Shown here piece after piece: positions 1,357 to 40,087 of a DNA stretch of 41,455 nucleotides (position 1 is its first letter; each line of letters opens with the position of its first letter). The notes beneath the pieces are model-generated. The model saw nothing but the letters and a program-made list of their open reading frames with translations. It did not search any database and had not been told where the DNA came from. The stretch lies in the IMG/VR virus record IMGVR_UViG_2585427970_000004; one strand, given 5' to 3'. The stretch is from a virus (taxonomy: Duplodnaviria > Heunggongvirae > Uroviricota > Caudoviricetes). The translations under genes were made by a program, and so were the position numbers.

Positions 1357-2247
1357 TCAGGCTGCCAGATCATCGTTTCCGATGGAAGCATAATAAGCTT
1401 TTTCTGCTTCTGCCGGAGGAGTATGGCCCAGCCTTTCCAGCAATCGTCGATTGTTATACCAGTCCACCCACGTGAGTGTGGCCAGTTCCACTTCTGCACG
1501 GTTTTTCCAGCTCTTACGGTGTATTACCTCCGCTTTGTAAAGACCATTGATGCTCTCCGCCATCGCGTTGTCATACGAGTCGCCTGTACTTCCTGTTGAT
1601 GCCAGTAATCCGGCTTCCTTAAGCCGCTGTGTGTAGGCCAGCGATACATACTGAGAACCTTTATCACTGTGATGGACCGTGCCGGACGGTCGACGGGCCC
1701 ATAACGCCTGCTCCAGTGCATCCAGCACGAATGTCGTTTCCATGGACGATGAGACCCGCCACCCCACGATGTATCCGGCAAACACATCAATGATGAACGC
1801 CACATAGACGAAGCCCCGCCATGTGCTGACGTAAGTAAAATCAGCCACCCACAGCTGGTCAGGTCGTTCTGCCACGAACTGACGGTTTACGCGGTCGCCT
1901 GCGGCAACGGCTTTCCGGCTGATGGTCGTACGGACCTTTTTACCCCGGAGAACACCGGCAAGTCCCATAACCGCCATGAGACGTGCCACAGTGCATCTGG
2001 CCACTCTGATACCTTCCCGTAACAACTGACGCCAGACTTTACGCACACCGTATACCTTGTGATTTTCATCGTATACGCGCTGTATCTCTTTCTTCAGCCA
2101 GTCATCGCGCTGCGCACGGGCACTGCGTTTATCCGGATGATGTCGCTGTTGCTGACAGTGGTAATACGTTGACGGGGCAATATGTAGTTCACTGCATACC
2201 GGTCCGACCCCGTACAGCTTACGCAGCTTATCCAGCAGTGGCATCAC
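1357..2247 (-). CDS. IS3-family transposase OrfB (DDE integrase core), probably expressed as an OrfAB frameshift fusion
   Basis: 296-aa ORF with DDE-type core ([11 protein letters not shown]...HSDKGSQY...[15 protein letters not shown]); overlaps OrfA in the -1 frame at an AAAAAG stretch (2247..2252 on the minus strand). Confidence 0.9.
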
Positions 2248-2570
2248 TTTTTCCAGAGGCGGTCGAACTCCGCCTTCGCAAAATAAGCGGAAGCCTGGCG
2301 AAGGATATCGTTACTGCGGCGCAGTTCACGATTTTCACGTTCCAGCTCTTTCAGACGCTGACGTTCAGCGGTGGTGAGCCCTCCATCACCGCCCCCGGTA
2401 TCCCGCTCATGCTGGCGAACCCAGACACGCAGAGTCTCCGGCGTACAGCCAATCTTTGGAGCAATGGAACAAATTGTCGCCCATTGTGAGTCATATTCGC
2501 TCTGACTTTCCAGAACCATACGGACTGCCCGTTGACGGACTTCGGGGGAAAAACGAGTATTTTTAGTCAT
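2244..2570 (-). CDS. IS3-family transposase OrfA (HTH)
   Basis: 108-aa [53 protein letters not shown]...; leucine-zipper-like C-terminus; recalled as IS629/IS1203-type OrfA. Confidence 0.9.
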
Positions 2571-31674: not shown

Positions 31675-32220
31675 TCATATCGCCCCCAGCATGGTAGTAA
31701 CCATCGCCATCAATGGACCAGCCAGATCCGGGTCCACACGAAACATCGACACAATACCTTCACTAATTTCCTTCAGTTTCTGGTGGCGTGGTGCGTTGAG
31801 AATGACCGCCTGCTTTGCCTCACAGAGTTCCTTTTCCATTTCAGCCAGCCGAGCCATGAAGCTATCCTGCTCAACCAGGTGGCCGCGATATTCCAGCGGT
31901 AGTACCGCCAGAATTGCCGGGGTCAGTTCACGCACGTTATTTCGGTATTTTTCAGAATCGAATTTGTTATCGAGGAAGCGGAACAGCTTCTGGCGTGCAC
32001 GGCTGACATCATCAGGGAAATCGATGGTGCCGCCGCCCTGCTCCCGATACTCATTCACAATGAGTGCGGCAACAACATCCTGATTATCTGCAGCCGACCA
32101 GGCGCGAACGGCATCACGGATTTTTTCGTGGCCTGGCGCCTGTTTTGTTTGAGAACGATTTATCACCGCCGTCGGGCTAAATCCGCTAGTCTGTTGGTAT
32201 GTAAGTGATTGCATAGTCAT
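31675..32220 (-). CDS. CII-position regulatory protein (YdaT-like)
   Basis: 181 aa; between cro-like and O; stop overlaps the track-predicted O start; family guess by position and weak recall. Confidence 0.4.
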   Translation of the reverse strand: MTMQSLTYQQTSGFSPTAVINRSQTKQAPGHEKIRDAVRAWSAADNQDVVAALIVNEYREQGGGTIDFPDDVSRARQKLFRFLDNKFDSEKYRNNVRELTPAILAVLPLEYRGHLVEQDSFMARLAEMEKELCEAKQAVILNAPRHQKLKEISEGIVSMFRVDPDLAGPLMAMVTTMLGAI

Positions 32221-32244
32221 TGCCTTATCAGTTAACGCCGCAGT

Positions 32245-32472
32245 TTAGGCGGCAGAATTACTCGCGTTAAACAATGGTGCGAGGTCGGGACGAATATCTG
32301 CTGGTTTAATCTTTCCACCAGTGGCTGAGACAATTTTCATTACATAGCGGGCATCAATTCCGCCACCGTGTAGCCAACGCCAAACAGTGGGTTGGGCTAC
32401 ACCGCATAGATCTGCCAGTCGTTTTTGACTACCTGTAATACTAATTGCGAGTTGAATGGTTTGATTTGTCAT
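32245..32472 (-). CDS. Cro-like HTH regulator (YdaS/Cro family)
   Basis: Start refined to ATG 32472 (AGGA RBS); HTH segment SQKRLADLCGVAQPTVWRW; divergent from cI. Confidence 0.6.
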   Translation of the reverse strand: MTNQTIQLAISITGSQKRLADLCGVAQPTVWRWLHGGGIDARYVMKIVSATGGKIKPADIRPDLAPLFNASNSAA

Positions 32473-32503
32473 TATCAATTCCTATTGGTATTGCAATGAA
32501 TAG

Positions 32504-32532
32504 ATAATAGCAATGCGTATTAACTCAATCAA
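32504..32532 (-). promoter_or_regulatory. PR-like sigma70 promoter for the cro-like operon
   Basis: Minus strand -35 TTGATT (32527..32532), 17-bp spacer, -10 TATTAT (32504..32509); operator-like AATAGCAAT motif in the spacer. Confidence 0.55.
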
Positions 32533-32546
32533 TAGCAAAACGTGTT

Positions 32547-32575
32547 TTGACCATCAATACGCAAGCGTATAAATT
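32547..32575 (+). promoter_or_regulatory. PRM-like promoter for cI; transcript predicted leaderless
   Basis: -35 TTGACC (32547..32552), 17-bp spacer, -10 TAAATT (32570..32575), ending about 7 nt before the cI ATG at 32583, which has no SD. Confidence 0.45.
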
Positions 32576-32582
32576 AAAACTT

Positions 32583-33275
32583 ATGAAAAAAGAAACTCTT
32601 GCTGATCGCTTAAACCTAGCGATGGAACAATCTGGAATGTCTCAAGGCGCTCTTGCAAAGGCGTCTGGCGTAGCTCAACCCACAATCTGGAGACTGACAA
32701 GCGGCAACGCGCGTGGCTCAACAAAAATTGTTGAAATAGCTAATGCATTGGGTGTTCGAACAGAGTGGCTCTCATCAGGCATAGGCCCGATGAGAAATGA
32801 CGGTCAACAATCAGGAAAGCCTGCTGTCAACCATTCCAAATACTTCAAGATTGACGTTCTTGATATAGAAGTGAGTGCCGGGCCGGGAGTCATCAACCGT
32901 GAGTTTGTAGAAGTTCTACGCTCGGTTGAGTACTCGTTTGACGATGCTCGTCACATGTTCGATGGTAGGAAGGCAGAAAATATCCGCATCATTAACGTGC
33001 GTGGTGACAGCATGTCAGGAACGATCGAACCAGGTGATCTGCTGTTCGTTGATATCACGGTTAAATCTTTCGACGGTGATGGTATCTATGCGTTTCTGTA
33101 CGACGACACAGCCCATGTAAAGCGCCTGCAAATGATGAAGGATAAGCTGCTGGTTATCTCTGATAACAAGAGCTACTCACCGTGGGACCCGATCGAGAAA
33201 GACGAGATGAACCGGGTGTTTATCTTCGGGAAAGTTATTGGGAGCATGCCGCAGACGTACAGGAAGCATGGGTAA
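32583..33275 (+). CDS. cI: CI-like repressor (HTH_XRE plus S24 LexA-like peptidase domain)
   Basis: Start refined to ATG 32583 (MKKETLADRLNLAMEQSGMSQGALAKASGVAQPTIWRL…); C-terminal GDSMSGTIEPGDLLFVD…HVKRL autocleavage-type motifs (Ser…Lys); track start is TTG. Confidence 0.85.
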   Translation: MKKETLADRLNLAMEQSGMSQGALAKASGVAQPTIWRLTSGNARGSTKIVEIANALGVRTEWLSSGIGPMRNDGQQSGKPAVNHSKYFKIDVLDIEVSAGPGVINREFVEVLRSVEYSFDDARHMFDGRKAENIRIINVRGDSMSGTIEPGDLLFVDITVKSFDGDGIYAFLYDDTAHVKRLQMMKDKLLVISDNKSYSPWDPIEKDEMNRVFIFGKVIGSMPQTYRKHG

Positions 33276-33320: not shown

Positions 33321-33740
33321 ATGATGCAACATAATATTCATAGTGATTATTTCAAGTGGTGGTGTGGAACGGTAATCATTGGAGCAATCCCTATCTTTAT
33401 TAGATTTATTGCTTATTTCATCACTAATAAAAATATAGAGATGATCAATATAACTGAGTTGATATGTTTTGGCTTTGCCATACAAATATCCAGCATCTAT
33501 TACGGAATGGGCCAACCTAGTAAGCAAACTGAAAACAATATTATTTTAAATACTACTATATCGATTGTTTTCATTGTGATTTTTTCTATAATTTACATTA
33601 TTGTCATGCTGGCTGATAACATCCTTAACATGAATACGACTCGCATATTAGTCGCTATTACTTGTGGTATATCCTTATACATTGGACAAAATTCGGTCAG
33701 GTGTGCTATTATCAATAACAAATTAGCAGCGCAGGAGTAA
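33321..33740 (+). CDS. Small integral membrane protein (4 predicted TM helices), first gene of the cassette in the rexAB-equivalent slot
   Basis: 139 aa; four hydrophobic segments; very AT-rich; immediately downstream of cI. Confidence 0.55.
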   Translation: MMQHNIHSDYFKWWCGTVIIGAIPIFIRFIAYFITNKNIEMINITELICFGFAIQISSIYYGMGQPSKQTENNIILNTTISIVFIVIFSIIYIIVMLADNILNMNTTRILVAITCGISLYIGQNSVRCAIINNKLAAQE

Positions 33741-33743
33741 ATT

Positions 33744-33920
33744 ATGGAGTTCTTAATTACTATTTTATCCATAATAGCTGTTGTGATACCTGCTGTATTG
33801 GCATGGTTTTCAAGAAAAAACCTCAAAAATGCACAGGAAACTTTAATTCACATAGAAAGGATCAGAAAATCAAACAGCGATGACTTTGAAAGAAAGAAAG
33901 AACAACTTAAATATCACTAA
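33744..33920 (+). CDS. Small single-TM protein (58 aa), below the ORF-track threshold
   Basis: AGGAG RBS 6 nt upstream of ATG 33744; MEFLITILSIIAVVIPAVLAWFSRKNLKNAQETLIHIERIRKSNSDDFERKKEQLKYH. Confidence 0.4.
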   Translation: MEFLITILSIIAVVIPAVLAWFSRKNLKNAQETLIHIERIRKSNSDDFERKKEQLKYH

Positions 33921-34830
33921 TGGAATTGGTATGCAGTTAAAAAATATCATTTATATTGATTATGAGAAGGTCTACTCTTTAAGCTCTCAATTATTTGAGG
34001 GCGTAATTCAATCCGCGATGGAGCATAAAGAGTCTACTCTTTCAAATATAGATGCAGTCGAAATTAAGACAAAAAGTAGTTCAAGTAAAACGAGTGACAC
34101 AAAAAAATTATCAACAGTGTTAAACCCTCATGATTACCATTATCTGAAATTTGAAAACGAACTTAGCAATAGAGGAATTCTATCTAACATAACTTCCCCG
34201 ATCGACTCGAACAAAATTAAGGCTAATTGCTTTGTTAAAATCACCTGCCCTATTCAATTTAATGACTATAGTAAATTAAAAAATACCGCGAAGGATTTTT
34301 GTAAAATTCACTATGCTATTAATTTCGTTCATCGAAATGGTGAATTAGAAAACCTAGAATCGATGCTGAAATCGATAAAACCCAAATCCAATGAATTTAA
34401 TATTATCAAGGCAAGACAAGCACAAATCAAAAGTGAGCTTGATAATTTAACTTCTCCAAATAAGAAAAAGTTTCTTGAGCATCTGTCTTCTGTTTTAGAT
34501 TACGCATATGGTGACGAAATAGAAATATCACAAAAAATGCAAGATATTAAATTCACCTCATTCTTAATCAGAGATTTTCTTAAAATCAGCCCAGAAATGT
34601 TTGTAAAGTTATATTCTCGTCGAACGACCTCTGCATTCACTGTCGTAGGGATGATAACGCGTACATCAACGTCTGAAGGCGATCAGGAATCAGAGGCTCG
34701 TGAACTAAGCGGCATTCGCAGTGCGGTCTGGAATATGAATGACAGCCTTTTTGATCTGGAGTCAACATTTTGTGCCCCTGACTCTGATGAATATTTCATT
34801 GAGCCTATTGCTGTTTACAATGAGCTATAA
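33880..34830 (+). CDS. Hypothetical soluble protein (~300-316 aa), third gene of the rex-slot cassette
   Basis: ORF from ATG 33880 overlaps the 58-aa ORF by 41 nt; alternative start ATG 33931 lies 10 nt after that ORF's stop; no motif I can assign; AT-rich; followed by a terminator. Confidence 0.55.
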   Translation: MTLKERKNNLNITNGIGMQLKNIIYIDYEKVYSLSSQLFEGVIQSAMEHKESTLSNIDAVEIKTKSSSSKTSDTKKLSTVLNPHDYHYLKFENELSNRGILSNITSPIDSNKIKANCFVKITCPIQFNDYSKLKNTAKDFCKIHYAINFVHRNGELENLESMLKSIKPKSNEFNIIKARQAQIKSELDNLTSPNKKKFLEHLSSVLDYAYGDEIEISQKMQDIKFTSFLIRDFLKISPEMFVKLYSRRTTSAFTVVGMITRTSTSEGDQESEARELSGIRSAVWNMNDSLFDLESTFCAPDSDEYFIEPIAVYNEL

Positions 34831-34835
34831 AAACA

Positions 34836-34863
34836 ACCCGGCCACTGCGCCGGGTTTTCTTTT
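34836..34863 (+). terminator. Rho-independent terminator after the rex-slot cassette
   Basis: ACCCGGC-CACTGC-GCCGGGT followed by TTTTCTTTT, 6 nt after the stop at 34830. Confidence 0.65.
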
Positions 34864-35004
34864 GCCCTCCCCTCATCACACAAACCGTTCGAAAAACCAC
34901 CACAACCTCGCTTCAGTTACCGCTATGCGATGCAAGTCACAAAATTAATTCTTTTTGCTATCAAACAGTTAATATCAAAACACATCAATCAATAGCAATA
35001 AGTA

Positions 35005-35033
35005 TTGATATCACCAATAGCAATAGCTATTAT
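35005..35033 (+). promoter_or_regulatory. PL-like sigma70 promoter with operator-like repeats (OL)
   Basis: -35 TTGATA (35005..35010), 17-bp spacer, -10 TATTAT (35028..35033); upstream TCAATCAATAGCAA (34985..34998) identical to the OR copy at 32525..32538. Confidence 0.55.
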
Positions 35034-35106: not shown

Positions 35107-35517
35107 TTGAATTTCAGCAGGCTACGGGAAGTGCGAGGGGTGAAGCGGACGCGTGAACGTCGGTGTGACCAGCTGAAATCAACTCAACACTTCATACCTC
35201 AGTCGCTTCAACGAGGCGGCTTAGTTATGACAACCGGCGGCCATCCACCGCCTGAATACGCGCAGAAGTCTTTATATGTTCAGCAGCCCAGCTTACGGGC
35301 AGGAGCTTTTATGGTTCATCAACATTACGGAACGCAGACCGTTAATCGCGGTGCGGTCATGCCAGGAATGCTGGTCAAACACAAAGATGGTACCTGGACA
35401 GCATCAGCTAATTTACGCGGACGGCTATATCTGCATCGCGGCATCGAGCGCACTTATACCCGTGATTTGCTCGTGGAAGTTTTTCTCGACGGACGCGGTA
35501 ACGGCCTCAATCACTAA
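35107..35517 (+). CDS. Hypothetical ORF in the N/kil position; probably a 69-aa product from ATG 35311
   Basis: Long open frame with no ATG before 35227; ATG 35311 has AGGAG RBS 5 nt upstream ([32 protein letters not shown]…); upstream segment encodes an arginine-rich stretch (KRTRERR). Confidence 0.3.
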
Positions 35518-38635: not shown

Positions 38636-38957
38636 GGCCTGTCAGTTTCTTAAGATATCCAGACCAACCGCCACCAACTGGATACGAACAGGCCGCCTAC
38701 AGGCAACACGTAAAGATCCAACCAAGCCAAAATCTCCTTACCTCACAACACGGCAAGCCTGCATTGCGGCGCTTCAGTCTCCGCTGCATACTGTCCAGGT
38801 GAGCGCGGGTGATGGCATAACAGAGGAAAGAAAATGTCACTCTTCCGCAGAAGTGAAATATGGTACGCCAGTTTCACATTGCCGAACGGTAAAAGATTTA
38901 AACAGTCTCTTGGAACAAAGGACAAAAGGCAGGCGACAGAGCTCCATGACAAGCTAA
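38607..38957 (+). CDS. Excisionase-like HTH protein
   Basis: ATG 38607 with GAGGT RBS; [34 protein letters not shown]; immediately upstream of and overlapping int. Confidence 0.5.
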
Positions 38958-39997
38958 AGGCTGAAGCATGGCGGGTCAGCAAACTTGGTGAAATACCTGA
39001 TATAACGTTCGAGGAAGCGTGTGTCAGGTGGCTTGAAGAGAAAGCACATAAAAAATCACTGGACGATGACAAAAGCCGGATCGGATTCTGGCTTCAACAT
39101 TTCGCAGGAATGCAACTAAGAGACATTACTGAATCAAAAATTTATTCAGCAATGCAGAAAATGACGAACCGGCGTCATGAGGAAAACTGGAGACTCAGGG
39201 CAGAAGCATGCAGAAAAAAAGGGAAACCTGTTCCAGAATACACGCCAAAACCAGCGTCCGTTGCAACGAAGGCTACGCATCTTTCATTTATAAAGGCCCT
39301 ACTAAGAGCCGCAGAGCGTGAATGGAAAATGCTGGATAAGGCACCAATTATTAAAGTGCCTCAACCAAAGAATAAACGGATCCGCTGGCTGGAGCCCCAT
39401 GAAGCACAAAGGCTGATTGATGAATGTCCGGAGCCATTAAAGTCTGTTGTTGAATTTGCACTGGCAACAGGCTTAAGACGCTCGAACATCATCAACCTTG
39501 AATGGCAACAAATAGACATGCAGCGCCGGGTGGCATGGATAAACCCGGAAGAGAGTAAATCAAACCGCGCAATTGGCGTTGCGCTGAATGATACTGCATG
39601 TCGCGTTTTGAAAAAACAAATCGGGAATCATCACCGTTGGGTATTTGTGTACAAGGAAAGCTGTACCAAACCAGACGGAACGAAAGCGCCAACAGTAAGG
39701 AAGATGCGGTATGACGCAAACACAGCCTGGAAAGCGGCGCTGAGACGGGCTGGTATTGATGATTTCAGATTTCACGACTTGAGACACACCTGGGCAAGTT
39801 GGCTGGTTCAAGCCGGAGTCCCGTTGTCAGTGTTACAGGAAATGGGAGGCTGGGAGTCTATCGAAATGGTTCGTCGATATGCTCACCTTGCACCTAATCA
39901 CCTTACCGAACACGCACGGCAAATAGACTCGATCCTGAACCCATCGGTCCCAAATTCGTCCCAGTCAAAAAATAAGGAAGGTACTAATGATGTGTAA
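38834..39997 (+). CDS. int: Tyrosine integrase (tRNA-Thr site-specific, IntF-like)
   Basis: 387 aa; C-terminal catalytic motifs (…[42 protein letters not shown]…); ends 15 nt before the tRNA 3' end. Confidence 0.9.
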
Positions 39998-40011: not shown

Positions 40012-40087
40012 TGGTGCCGATAATAGGAGTCGAACCTACGACCTTCGCATTACGAATGCGCTGCTCTACCAACTGAGCTATATCGGC
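40012..40087 (-). tRNA. thrW: tRNA-Thr (anticodon CGU), thrW-like; prophage integration target
   Basis: rc = GCCGATATAGCTCAGTTGGTAGAGCAGCGCATTCGTAATGCGAAGGTCGTAGGTTCGACTCCTATTATCGGCACCA; cloverleaf with anticodon loop TTCGTAA, TPsiC-loop TTCGACT, 3' CCA. Confidence 0.9.

Follow-up and report, generated by a model that had tools for sequence, protein, structure and literature searches.

In phage lambda, cI and cro are divergent genes whose start codons lie 100 nt apart. In phage 434, the repressor and Cro have nearly identical recognition helices, and the operators are 14 bp long with the form ACAA-N6-TTGT. Two further systems bear directly on the locus described here. In CP-933P, a cryptic prophage of E. 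coli O157:H7 with a toxin-antitoxin pair downstream of the repressor gene, the repressor gene diverges from genes for YdaS (Cro) and YdaT (a cII analogue) across a 97 bp intergenic region that contains PR, PRM and four repeats (PMC8630535). The paaR2 repressor mRNA of CP-933P is leaderless, with 5'-RACE and N-terminal sequencing placing the start at the first nucleotide, and YdaT switches on a PRE promoter whose transcript runs into the gene for the repressor (PMC8630535). The recognition helices of YdaT proteins are reported to be variable (PMC9986795). BTP1, a P22-like Salmonella podovirus that occurs in epidemic S. Typhimurium ST313, has a conventional small cII (c2) rather than YdaT. The BTP1 cI-bstA operon is strongly expressed in lysogens and has a single transcription start site (TSS) by dRNA-seq (PMC7067206); the BTP1 literature that we searched describes neither the operators nor a leaderless start.

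Gene content of the immunity region

The window is the whole stretch of 41,455 nt in an IMG/VR virus record (IMGVR_UViG_2585427970_000004). We read in it the two start codons named in a preliminary description, the ATG of a cro-like gene at 32472 on the minus strand (CAT at 32470-32472) and the ATG of cI at 32583 on the plus strand; in the ORF list, 110 nt separate these divergent start codons, slightly more than in lambda. The cro-like gene (32245..32472, minus strand; ORF list and Pfam) encodes a 75-aa protein of the YdaS/P22_Cro family (PF15943, E 9.6e-15) with the helix-turn-helix (HTH) GVAQPTVWRW, and this protein also matches the Xfaso Cro structures 3bd1 and 5w8y in the PDB (E about 1e-3). 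The cI gene (32583..33275, plus strand), identified from Pfam, the PDB and its translation, encodes a 230-aa repressor in which an N-terminal HTH_3 domain (PF01381, E 1.8e-6; HTH GVAQPTIWRL) is joined to a C-terminal Peptidase_S24 domain (PF00717, E 1.3e-18), and its translation contains the S24 autocleavage motifs: the cleavage-site motif SAG, GDSM and VKR. The closest solved structure to the DNA-binding domain is that of the 434 repressor (PDB, E about 2e-5), and the HTH is 434-like rather than lambda-like; identity to 434 is low, however, with a recognition helix of AQPTIWR here and QQSIEQL in 434. The translations of cI and Cro have a common recognition helix, GVAQPT(I/V)WR.

The cII slot is occupied by a YdaT-family gene (31675..32220, minus strand; PF06254, E 1.6e-29; PDB 8bt1, E 2.5e-4), followed by O- and P-like genes. 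By BLASTP, the encoded protein is 35% identical to CP-933P YdaT (E 9e-11) and Cro is 31% identical to CP-933P YdaS (E 4e-4), so that the right arm is of the YdaS/YdaT type of Rac and CP-933P. We presume that the YdaT-family protein is the activator of a PRE-type promoter, a function inferred from PMC8630535 and PMC9986795. Near the cro/ydaT junction, the consensus scan found no plus-strand site for such a promoter, and the inverted repeats there are short. The sole near match in this region to the CP-933P YdaT operator, TTGATT-N6-AATCAA, is TTGATTtgtcatTATCAA (32461-32478, 1 mismatch), which lies over the cro start rather than at the junction and is not kept in phage 4A7 or in Klebsiella. The matches total 34, with 23.8 expected, and include another with 1 mismatch elsewhere in the window; we treated the site as chance. 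Homology of cI to PaaR2 was likewise rejected (BLASTP E 0.92); PaaR2 is 123 aa long and has no alignment to the S24 domain of cI.

Downstream of cI are three AT-rich accessory ORFs on the plus strand (33321..34830; ORF list), encoding proteins of 139 aa, 58 aa and 316 aa, the last a DUF6414 protein (E 1.2e-18). These ORFs are probably cotranscribed with cI from PRM, as in the BTP1 cI-bstA operon, and a bidirectional hairpin that resembles an intrinsic terminator (34835..34856) would end the operon. The accessory ORFs occupy the position of rexAB or bstA. A PADLOC search found no defence systems among the genes downstream of cI, and there were no Rfam matches near 32-35 kb.

We consider it probable, at about 80%, that 32473-32582 is the OR of a lambdoid prophage, integrated beside tRNA-Thr, and works as a lambda-like switch with a leaderless cI. 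The claim of a lambda-like PR/PRM switch with a predicted leaderless cI is supported by gene content, operator placement and comparative conservation. The gene identities fit: an S24 cI, a YdaS-type Cro, YdaT in the cII slot and O- and P-like genes. The locus combines divergent genes, a repressor with HTH and S24 domains, at least three dyad operators over both promoters, and a second operator cluster at PL.

Promoters and operators between cro and cI

A consensus scan independently recovered both promoters that had been proposed for this interval. On the minus strand, PR consists of a -35 element TTGATT (32532..32527) and a -10 element TATTAT (32509..32504) separated by 17 nt, with a TGn extended -10 at 32512..32510. 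On the plus strand, a PRM-like -35 element TTGACC (32547-32552) is followed after 17 nt by the -10 element TAAATT (32570-32575), which ends 7 nt before the cI ATG, as had been described. The ranking of the minus-strand promoter as strong and the plus-strand promoter as weaker found no support, as the hexamers score 9/12 in each. From promoter geometry, PR is predicted to initiate at the A at 32497 (minus strand), the 7th nt past the -10 and preceded by C, which would give cro a leader of 25 nt. The cro Shine-Dalgarno (SD) sequence, AGGA, is at 32483..32480 on the minus strand, and the predicted secondary structure of the cro leader is not more stable than that of shuffles.

By themselves, the promoter matches are weak evidence. 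With random AT-rich 110-mers as the null model, a plus-strand match occurs in about 23% of sequences, a minus-strand match in 22-30% and both in 5-8%; requiring in addition that the -10 end 5-8 nt from the ATG lowers the figure for both to 0.3-0.4%. If the promoter-like and operator-like matches were chance features of an AT-rich spacer with no regulatory role, the overall count of promoter-like matches would be unremarkable, and indeed there are 10 between 31.5 and 36.5 kb compared to 9.4 expected from shuffles. The dyads described below argue otherwise: they cluster only at OR and OL, they keep their 25-bp spacing across six genera, and a heteroimmune locus lacks them. We therefore give a chance origin almost no credence, as it is effectively refuted already by the comparative data.

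The operator consensus is a 16-bp dyad, AATAS-N6-STATT. The operator-like AATAGCAA(T) motifs that had been reported in and between the promoters are present there, and of the 5 copies of AATAGCAA in the 41 kb window, 4 lie in OR and OL; the motif is the left half of the 16-bp dyad, however, and not a whole operator. Our own initial 14-bp operator model (ATASSMAWRCGTRT) was dropped in favor of the 16-bp dyad after we read the OL sites. OR1, AATAGCAATGCGTATT (32506-32521), overlaps the PR -10 and spacer and is centered at -16.5 from the predicted PR start. OR2, AATAGCAAAACGTGTT (32531-32546), shares bases with the PR -35 and directly adjoins the PRM -35; its center lies at -41.5 relative to the predicted PR start and at -44.5 relative to the cI ATG. 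OR3, AATACGCAAGCGTATA (32556-32571), lies within the PRM spacer and the first 2 nt of the -10, centered at -19.5 from the cI ATG. The three sites are spaced 25 bp apart.

The second cluster is about 2.4 kb from OR, where OL2, AATAGCAATAAGTATT (34991-35006), and OL1, AATAGCAATAGCTATT (35016-35031), a perfect dyad, overlap a plus-strand PL-like promoter found by the consensus scan (TTGATA at 35005-35010, 17 nt, TATTAT at 35028-35033). A position weight matrix (PWM) for the dyad has six matches of at least 14.4 bits, all of them in OR or OL, while 0.135 are expected per 41 kb, so that the dyads go well past what chance would give. At homologous loci, OL is a cluster of 2-3 sites lying 1.9-2.9 kb from OR; the clusters at other loci contributed nothing to the PWM training set and score 15-21 bits. 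In some loci of Klebsiella and Raoultella, OL has three sites. The best candidate for a third OL site here, at 34947-34962, scores only 8.9 bits and was rejected. In the heteroimmune locus L008, the PWM found none of these dyads.

The OR region thus holds three dyad operators or, if a candidate site is counted, four. The candidate, AATTCCTATTGGTATT (32477-32492), overlaps the cro SD at approximately +6 to +21 of the predicted PR transcript and has a PWM score of 16.8 bits, although it was outside the training set. Of 42 distinct related regions, 38 carry it with a score of at least 12.6 bits; in sequences of the BTP1 type it is weak, at only 6-9.4 bits. Because the left half of this site is also constrained by the SD sequence, its status as an operator is tentative.

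We examined conservation in an alignment of 10 sequences from six genera (Escherichia, Klebsiella, Kluyvera, Citrobacter, Raoultella and Salmonella). There are zero indels from OR1 through the ATG, OR1-3 are invariant or nearly so, and the hexamers TTGACC and TAAATT do not change; the 8-nt spacer between OR1 and OR2 and the 7 nt before the ATG are free to vary. In related loci, the PR -10 TATTAT is kept in 117 of 117; only the TTG of the PR -35 is conserved, its remaining bases lying within the variable OR1-OR2 spacer (TTGCTT in 43, TTGCTA in 23, TTGCCT in 22 and TTGATT in 11). The BTP1 locus, like those of ST104 and SE1, encodes a cI with an N-terminal domain 88% identical to that of cI here and with the identical HTH GVAQPTIWRL, and a homologous Cro also has the same HTH as here. 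The same OR1-3, TTGACC, TAAATT and 7-nt gap are found in BTP1, with PWM scores of 14-20 bits across its OR1-3 and OL sites; by operator sequence and repressor recognition helix, this locus belongs with the BTP1/ST104 homoimmunity group. In both loci an accessory or defence gene follows cI, bstA in BTP1 and the DUF6414 gene here. The half-site of the CP-933P operator is different, GTTTAGTAA.

The predicted start of the cI transcript

The claim that no SD sequence precedes cI holds: the best anti-SD duplex within the 22 nt upstream of cI has a free energy of -0.1 kcal/mol, compared to -4.2 (cro), -8.4 (O) and -6.6 kcal/mol (P). Among cI homologues, this duplex is never better than -2.7 kcal/mol. 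The 5'-most 13 nt of the predicted cI mRNA are unpaired in both the MFE and centroid structures, and the fold of the 5' end is no more stable than that of shuffles (z 0.20). The stretch between the -10 and the ATG is AAAACTT (32576-32582). In a sample of 120 IMG/VR loci that were picked by the PRM/OR3 pattern, TAAATT included, so that only spacer length and sequence constitute independent evidence, the gap between TAAATT and the ATG is exactly 7 nt in all 120, and its 12 sequence variants each end in two pyrimidines before the A; the start codon is ATG in 120 of 120. The comparative data amount to a strong prediction that the cI transcript from PRM starts at the A of the ATG (32583) and is leaderless.

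If, instead, cI were made mainly from a leadered transcript starting upstream, either at a YdaT-activated PRE-type promoter or at a promoter inside cro, translation would be SD-independent and would use the AU-rich sequence upstream of the ATG together with ribosomal protein S1, and TTGACC-17-TAAATT would be conserved only through its interleaving with operators. Indeed, the region 5' of the ATG is AU-rich, 9/12 matches arise by chance at the frequencies given above, and OR3 extends over the initial TA of TAAATT, whose conservation could therefore be partly operator-derived. Moreover, the PRE of CP-933P is a precedent from which leadered cI transcripts very probably exist during establishment; since a PRE-type transcript must encode cI, also without an SD, leadered SD-less translation must be possible too. 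Four observations argue that such transcripts are not the main source of cI. First, TTGACC lies wholly outside the dyads, yet it is invariant in the 10 homologues, while the equivalent OR1-OR2 spacer varies. Second, a gap of fixed length and free sequence, with a fixed pyrimidine-pyrimidine-A junction, is predicted by a constraint on the start point and not by an S1-dependent or AU-rich leader. Third, the same geometry is found in heteroimmune relatives with the same C-terminal domain (TTGATG or TTGCCG, 17 nt, TA(A/C)ATT, 6 nt, ATG, with no SD) and at the RACE-proven CP-933P promoter (GATAAT, 6 nt, ATG). Fourth, BTP1 lysogens have the single cI-bstA TSS while PR is repressed, and with it YdaT or cII. 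We consider a mainly leadered origin of cI unlikely.

The exact start was weighed separately. In E. coli the modal start is the 7th nt after the -10, which for PRM is T32582, and the A of the ATG is at the 8th position; initiation at T32582 would leave a leader of a single nucleotide. Thus, PRM could be real and the transcript could start 1-2 nt upstream (5'-UAUG), or the protein could start at the in-frame TTG at 32547, from which the ORF is open and which the BTP1 record annotates as the start of c1. RNA polymerase, however, favors a purine start with a pyrimidine before it, and every variant has pyrimidines at -1 and -2. The TTG is itself part of the -35 hexamer and has no SD, the 12 extra codons differ non-conservatively among homologues (LKL, FEI, LNI), residue 6 of the protein started at the ATG aligns to residue 2 of 434 (helix 1), and the RefSeq start of cI in phage 4A7 is the same ATG. 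Either of these variants seems to us less probable still than a mainly leadered cI, and the leaderless start at 32583 is the reading that we carry forward.

Proposed operation of the switch and comparison with lambda

In a lysogen, LexA-like dimers of cI would bind the 16-bp dyads. At OR1 and OR2, cI would occlude the -10 and -35 of PR, turning off cro, the YdaT-type cII analogue and the replication genes, and it would also bind OL1 and OL2 over PL. cI at OR2 abuts the PRM -35 and may stimulate PRM as in lambda. In the order of occupancy that we infer, OR3, inside PRM, would be filled at high cI and would shut PRM off. The likeliest start point for PRM is the A of the cI ATG, and the maintenance transcript, cI plus the three accessory genes, would have neither a 5' leader nor an SD sequence and would be translated by the leaderless route, in which the ribosome binds the 5'-terminal AUG. 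Upon induction, RecA-stimulated self-cleavage would remove cI, and Cro would be expected to bind the same dyads, because its recognition helix is the same as that of cI, and to repress PRM.

This layout is close to that of lambda, for which we took the operator positions from the NC_001416 annotation. As in lambda, three dyad operators lie about 2.4 helical turns apart over both promoters, OL/PL is separated from OR by about 2.4 kb, with the accessory genes sitting in the stretch from cI to OL, and the repressor carries a self-cleaving S24 domain; its gene lacks an SD and has a -10 immediately 5' of the ATG. OR3 is at -19 from the cI ATG in lambda and within the PRM spacer and the first 2 nt of the -10 in both phages, while OR1 and OR2 of lambda are at -17 and -41 from the PR start, nearly the positions seen here. 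There are also differences. The operators are 17 bp in lambda and 16 bp here, Cro is of the YdaS/P22_Cro type with a YdaT-family protein in the cII slot, and the gap from the -10 to the ATG is 6 nt in lambda and 7 nt here. Only two OL sites were found in the window, and there may be a fourth OR site over the cro ribosome binding site. Lambda OR2 is at -42 from the cI start; OR2 here is 2.5 bp further out, which makes lambda-style activation of PRM uncertain. The PRM -35 is a poor TAGATA in lambda and a good TTGACC here, which might make PRM independent of an activator.

It is rather unlikely, in our view, that this immunity type works measurably differently from lambda by virtue of a fourth operator, a near-consensus PRM -35 and a more distant OR2. 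Two further differences belong to the same list: the two OL sites detected here and a cI that has no SD on any transcript. BTP1 is reported to have exceptionally high spontaneous induction, about 0.2% of cells (PMC5322425), and such differences from lambda, if true, could underlie it.

The immunity region is common. At coverage of at least 80% of the query, it is present in 721 of 5,426 complete E. coli genomes, and the same immunity region is also found in prophages of Klebsiella, Kluyvera, Citrobacter, Raoultella and Salmonella. The operator sequences of this immunity type are printed nowhere in the open-access literature that we searched; the operator and promoter map is therefore of practical use, as a ready design for footprinting and reporter work. 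The map also corrects the annotation of start codons, since BTP1 c1 is annotated to begin at the TTG of the -35 hexamer, and it adds many natural sequence variants of an mRNA that is probably leaderless. Conceptually, the map upholds the lambda paradigm and does not alter it: the switch is an ordinary design in a common, undissected immunity type.

Genes and promoters of the immunity region

The window is an almost complete prophage of lambdoid type, in which an integrase-sized ORF (38834-39997, plus strand) directly adjoins a tRNA-Thr gene (anticodon CGT; 40012-40087, minus strand), a junction that is probably the prophage attachment site. Near the left end, an Rfam ALIL pseudoknot (116 bits; 2173-2289, minus strand), a frameshift element of IS3-family transposases, occurs with an ORF at 1357-2247 (minus strand) and indicates an insertion sequence.

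The start codons given in the preliminary description, 32472 (minus strand) for the cro-like gene and ATG 32583 for cI, were both confirmed in the sequence. The cI gene (32583-33275, plus strand) encodes 230 amino acids with HTH_3 and Peptidase_S24 domains, the latter with SAG, GDSM and VKR motifs. The N-terminal domain has a PDB match in the 434 repressor (E about 2e-5), and since cI residue 6 aligns with 434 residue 2, ATG 32583 is required to encode helix 1; the RefSeq start of the repressor in phage 4A7 is the same ATG. The 75-aa Cro (32245-32472, minus strand), of the YdaS/P22_Cro family, has a recognition helix in common with cI, GVAQPT(I/V)WR, as would be expected if both recognise the same operators. 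A hairpin (GCCGC-N7-GCGGC, 32237-32253) lies across the cro stop codon, between cro and the ydaT-like gene, at the place on the PR transcript that nutR boxB takes in lambda; it may be a nut site or a terminator. Beyond it, the cII slot (31675-32220, minus strand) holds a 181-aa YdaT-family protein instead of a lambda-type cII, with 35% identity to CP-933P YdaT, followed by O- and P-like ORFs.

The divergent promoters proposed between cro and cI were both recovered as independent matches in a consensus scan, each scoring 9/12: TTGATT (32532..32527), 17 nt and TATTAT (32509..32504) on the minus strand, flagged with a TGn extended -10, and TTGACC (32547-32552), 17 nt and TAAATT (32570-32575) on the plus strand. 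As described, the ATG of cI follows TAAATT by 7 nt (AAAACTT) and is preceded by no Shine-Dalgarno; complementarity of the 22 nt upstream to the 16S rRNA 3' end is essentially nil (duplex -0.1 kcal/mol), where the cro, O-like and P-like genes give -4.2, -8.4 and -6.6 kcal/mol. The predicted cI mRNA has 13 unpaired nucleotides at its 5' end. PR is predicted to start at A32497, which is the 7th nucleotide after the -10 and follows a C.

Promoter matches by themselves carry little weight as evidence. In the 5-kb neighbourhood there are 10 promoter-like matches, with 9.4 expected, and random sequences with the composition of the 30%-GC spacer gave a plus-strand match in 23%, a minus-strand match in 22-30% and both together in 5-8% of trials. 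Both matches together with a plus-strand -10 that stops 5-8 nt short of the ATG arose in only 0.3-0.4% of trials.

Operators and their geometry

The operator-like AATAGCAA(T) motifs noted previously are present, but each forms the left half of a dyad 16 bp long, not a whole operator. The dyads are OR1 (32506-32521, AATAGCAATGCGTATT), OR2 (32531-32546, AATAGCAAAACGTGTT) and OR3 (32556-32571, AATACGCAAGCGTATA), spaced 25 bp centre to centre, and OL2 (34991-35006, AATAGCAATAAGTATT) and OL1 (35016-35031, AATAGCAATAGCTATT, a perfect dyad), which overlap a PL-like promoter, TTGATA-17-TATTAT, at 35005-35033. When a symmetric PWM trained on these five sites was run over the 41-kb window, the six top matches all fell in OR or OL, while random Markov windows give 0.135 at that threshold. 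Separate promoter matches are frequent in random sequence, as a chance origin would have it, but with the operator clustering, it is highly improbable that the promoter and operator matches arose by chance.

The sixth match (AATTCCTATTGGTATT, 32477-32492; 16.8 bits) was outside the training set and covers the cro Shine-Dalgarno, corresponding to roughly +6 to +21 on the predicted PR message. Of 42 distinct related sequences, 38 score at least 12.6 bits at this site, with conserved outer bases and a variable centre, and its counterpart in BTP1-type sequences scores only 6-9.4 bits. Because its left half doubles as the cro Shine-Dalgarno, we grade it only as a candidate fourth operator. The 22 distinct sites pooled from ten loci give a consensus half-site of A-A-T-A-(G/C)-(C/G/T)-n-A.

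The arrangement closely follows that of the lambda operators annotated in NC_001416. Relative to the cI start, the OR3 centre is at -19.5 (lambda -19) and that of OR2 at -44.5, 2.5 bp further out than in lambda (-42); relative to the predicted PR start, the positions are -16.5 for OR1 and -41.5 for OR2 (lambda -17 and -41). In both, OR3 lies across the PRM spacer and takes in the first two -10 bases. The -10 to ATG gap is 7 nt, compared to 6 in lambda (TAGATT-TAACGT-ATG), and the PRM -35, TTGACC, is far better than TAGATA of lambda. Unlike lambda, only two OL sites were found in the window, as in 4A7 and BTP1; homoimmune Klebsiella/Raoultella loci have three, 20 and 25 bp apart (L002 5734-5794, L003 5212-5272 and L007 5180-5240).

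Conservation and the predicted start of the cI message

Across an alignment of ten sequences from six genera, the operators, TTGACC and TAAATT are invariant and the interval from OR1 to the ATG has zero indels, with free variation in the 8-nt OR1-OR2 spacer and in the 7 nt before the ATG. The variable OR1-OR2 spacer reduces the PR -35 to TTG plus three variable bases, of which the window carries a minority version, TTGATT. Scanning IMG/VR with a pattern yielded 120 loci with 65 distinct OR sequences. In all 120, the gap between TAAATT and the ATG of ATGAAAAAAGA is exactly 7 nt and the start codon is ATG; the 7-nt spacer has 12 variants, all with two pyrimidines before the A. Since these loci were picked via the PRM/OR3 pattern, the independent evidence is only the fixed spacer length with free sequence. 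Heteroimmune relatives, with the cI C-terminal domain in common but different operators, have the same layout (TTGATG/TTGCCG, 17 nt, TA(A/C)ATT, 6 nt, ATG) without a Shine-Dalgarno.

If transcription starts at the A of the ATG, one expects a fixed distance with free sequence, a pyrimidine-purine junction and an AUG that is obligatory. A leader that merely lacks a Shine-Dalgarno predicts neither the fixed gap, nor the junction, nor the obligatory AUG. Such a leader would be made if cI were read from a PRE-type promoter, an origin that we regard as unlikely. No binding site for the YdaT-like protein and no PRE promoter were found in the window; in CP-933P, YdaT does activate a PRE-type promoter (Jurenas et al. 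2021, PMC8630535). The same study provides a precedent for the leaderless start: in the PaaR2-YdaS-YdaT switch of CP-933P, the PRM start mapped by 5'-RACE is the first base of paaR2, the N-terminus of PaaR2 was sequenced as MQKKE, and the 97-bp intergenic region holds four equally spaced repeats. At that locus, which we found via a primer given in the paper, the repressor promoter is TTGCTT-17-GATAAT-TACCAC-ATG. CP-933P YdaS and YdaT are homologous to the window proteins (E 4e-4 and 9e-11), but PaaR2 is unrelated to cI (E 0.92). The sequence TTGATTtgtcatTATCAA (32461-32478), over the cro start codon, comes within one mismatch of TTGATT-N6-AATCAA, the YdaT operator of CP-933P; homologues do not conserve it, and we consider it a chance match.

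In its N-terminal domain, cI shares 88% identity with its counterparts in the Salmonella P22-like phages BTP1, ST104 and SE1, and BTP1 has the same OR1-3, TTGACC, TAAATT and 7-nt gap. Owen et al. 2020 (PMC7067206) report that in BTP1 lysogens cI-bstA is one highly expressed operon for which dRNA-seq shows a single start site; coordinate transfer predicts FN424405 379527, minus strand, for it. Neither the operators nor a leaderless start are described in the BTP1 literature examined, and none of these operator sequences is printed in the open-access literature searched. Public records annotate the repressor start inconsistently: BTP1 c1 (LT714109.2, 2965-3690) from the TTG of the PRM -35 hexamer, the phage Turner CDS (L010, 339-1094) from further upstream, through the operators, and the RAH1 and ST101-KPC2phi6.1 repressors (the cI genes of L003 and L013) without the HTH domain. 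A TTG start as annotated, or a near-leaderless start 1-2 nt upstream, is quite unlikely given the helix 1 alignment and the junction at the A; the BTP1 c1 annotation likely needs correction.

The probable switch and its distribution

Comparative evidence thus supports the preliminary interpretation of a lambda-like PR/PRM switch with a predicted leaderless cI, and the lambda mechanism is the most likely one. The genes and their domains, the dyads, the promoter hexamers, the lack of a Shine-Dalgarno and the conservation were seen directly in the sequences; the start points, the order in which operators are occupied, activation from OR2, leaderless translation and the fourth site are inferred. 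Dimers of cI at OR1 and OR2 would block PR, and cI at OL1 and OL2 would block PL. PRM would initiate at the A of the cI ATG, so that cI and three accessory genes would share a leaderless mRNA ending at a terminator (34835-34856), with negative autoregulation through OR3. Once RecA-stimulated cleavage of cI had occurred, Cro would bind the same dyads.

The accessory genes, which take the rexAB/bstA 'moron' position, are three AT-rich ORFs (33321-34830) of 139, 58 and 316 aa, the last a DUF6414 protein. None had a PADLOC match, and the 139-aa ORF had no Pfam match either; they are possibly an uncharacterised prophage module for defence or exclusion, driven by the cI promoter. Downstream of PL, an ORF at 35107-35517 (plus strand; start either TTG 35107 or ATG 35228) has an arginine-rich GVKRTRERR near its N-terminus that recalls the RNA-binding motif of N antiterminators.

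The immunity region is 97-98% identical in E. coli phages 4A7, 4C10, Perceval, D2, 1W, 3W and PhiR30_1, and about 76% identical in Klebsiella phages; among 5,426 complete E. coli genomes, 721 match it over at least 80% of the query, and homoimmune prophages also occur in Kluyvera, Citrobacter and Raoultella. The analysis yields a concrete operator and promoter map, and existing BTP1 dRNA-seq data offer a cheap, decisive test of the cI start. The window represents a new, uncharacterised and very common immunity specificity of the textbook switch type, not a new kind of system.
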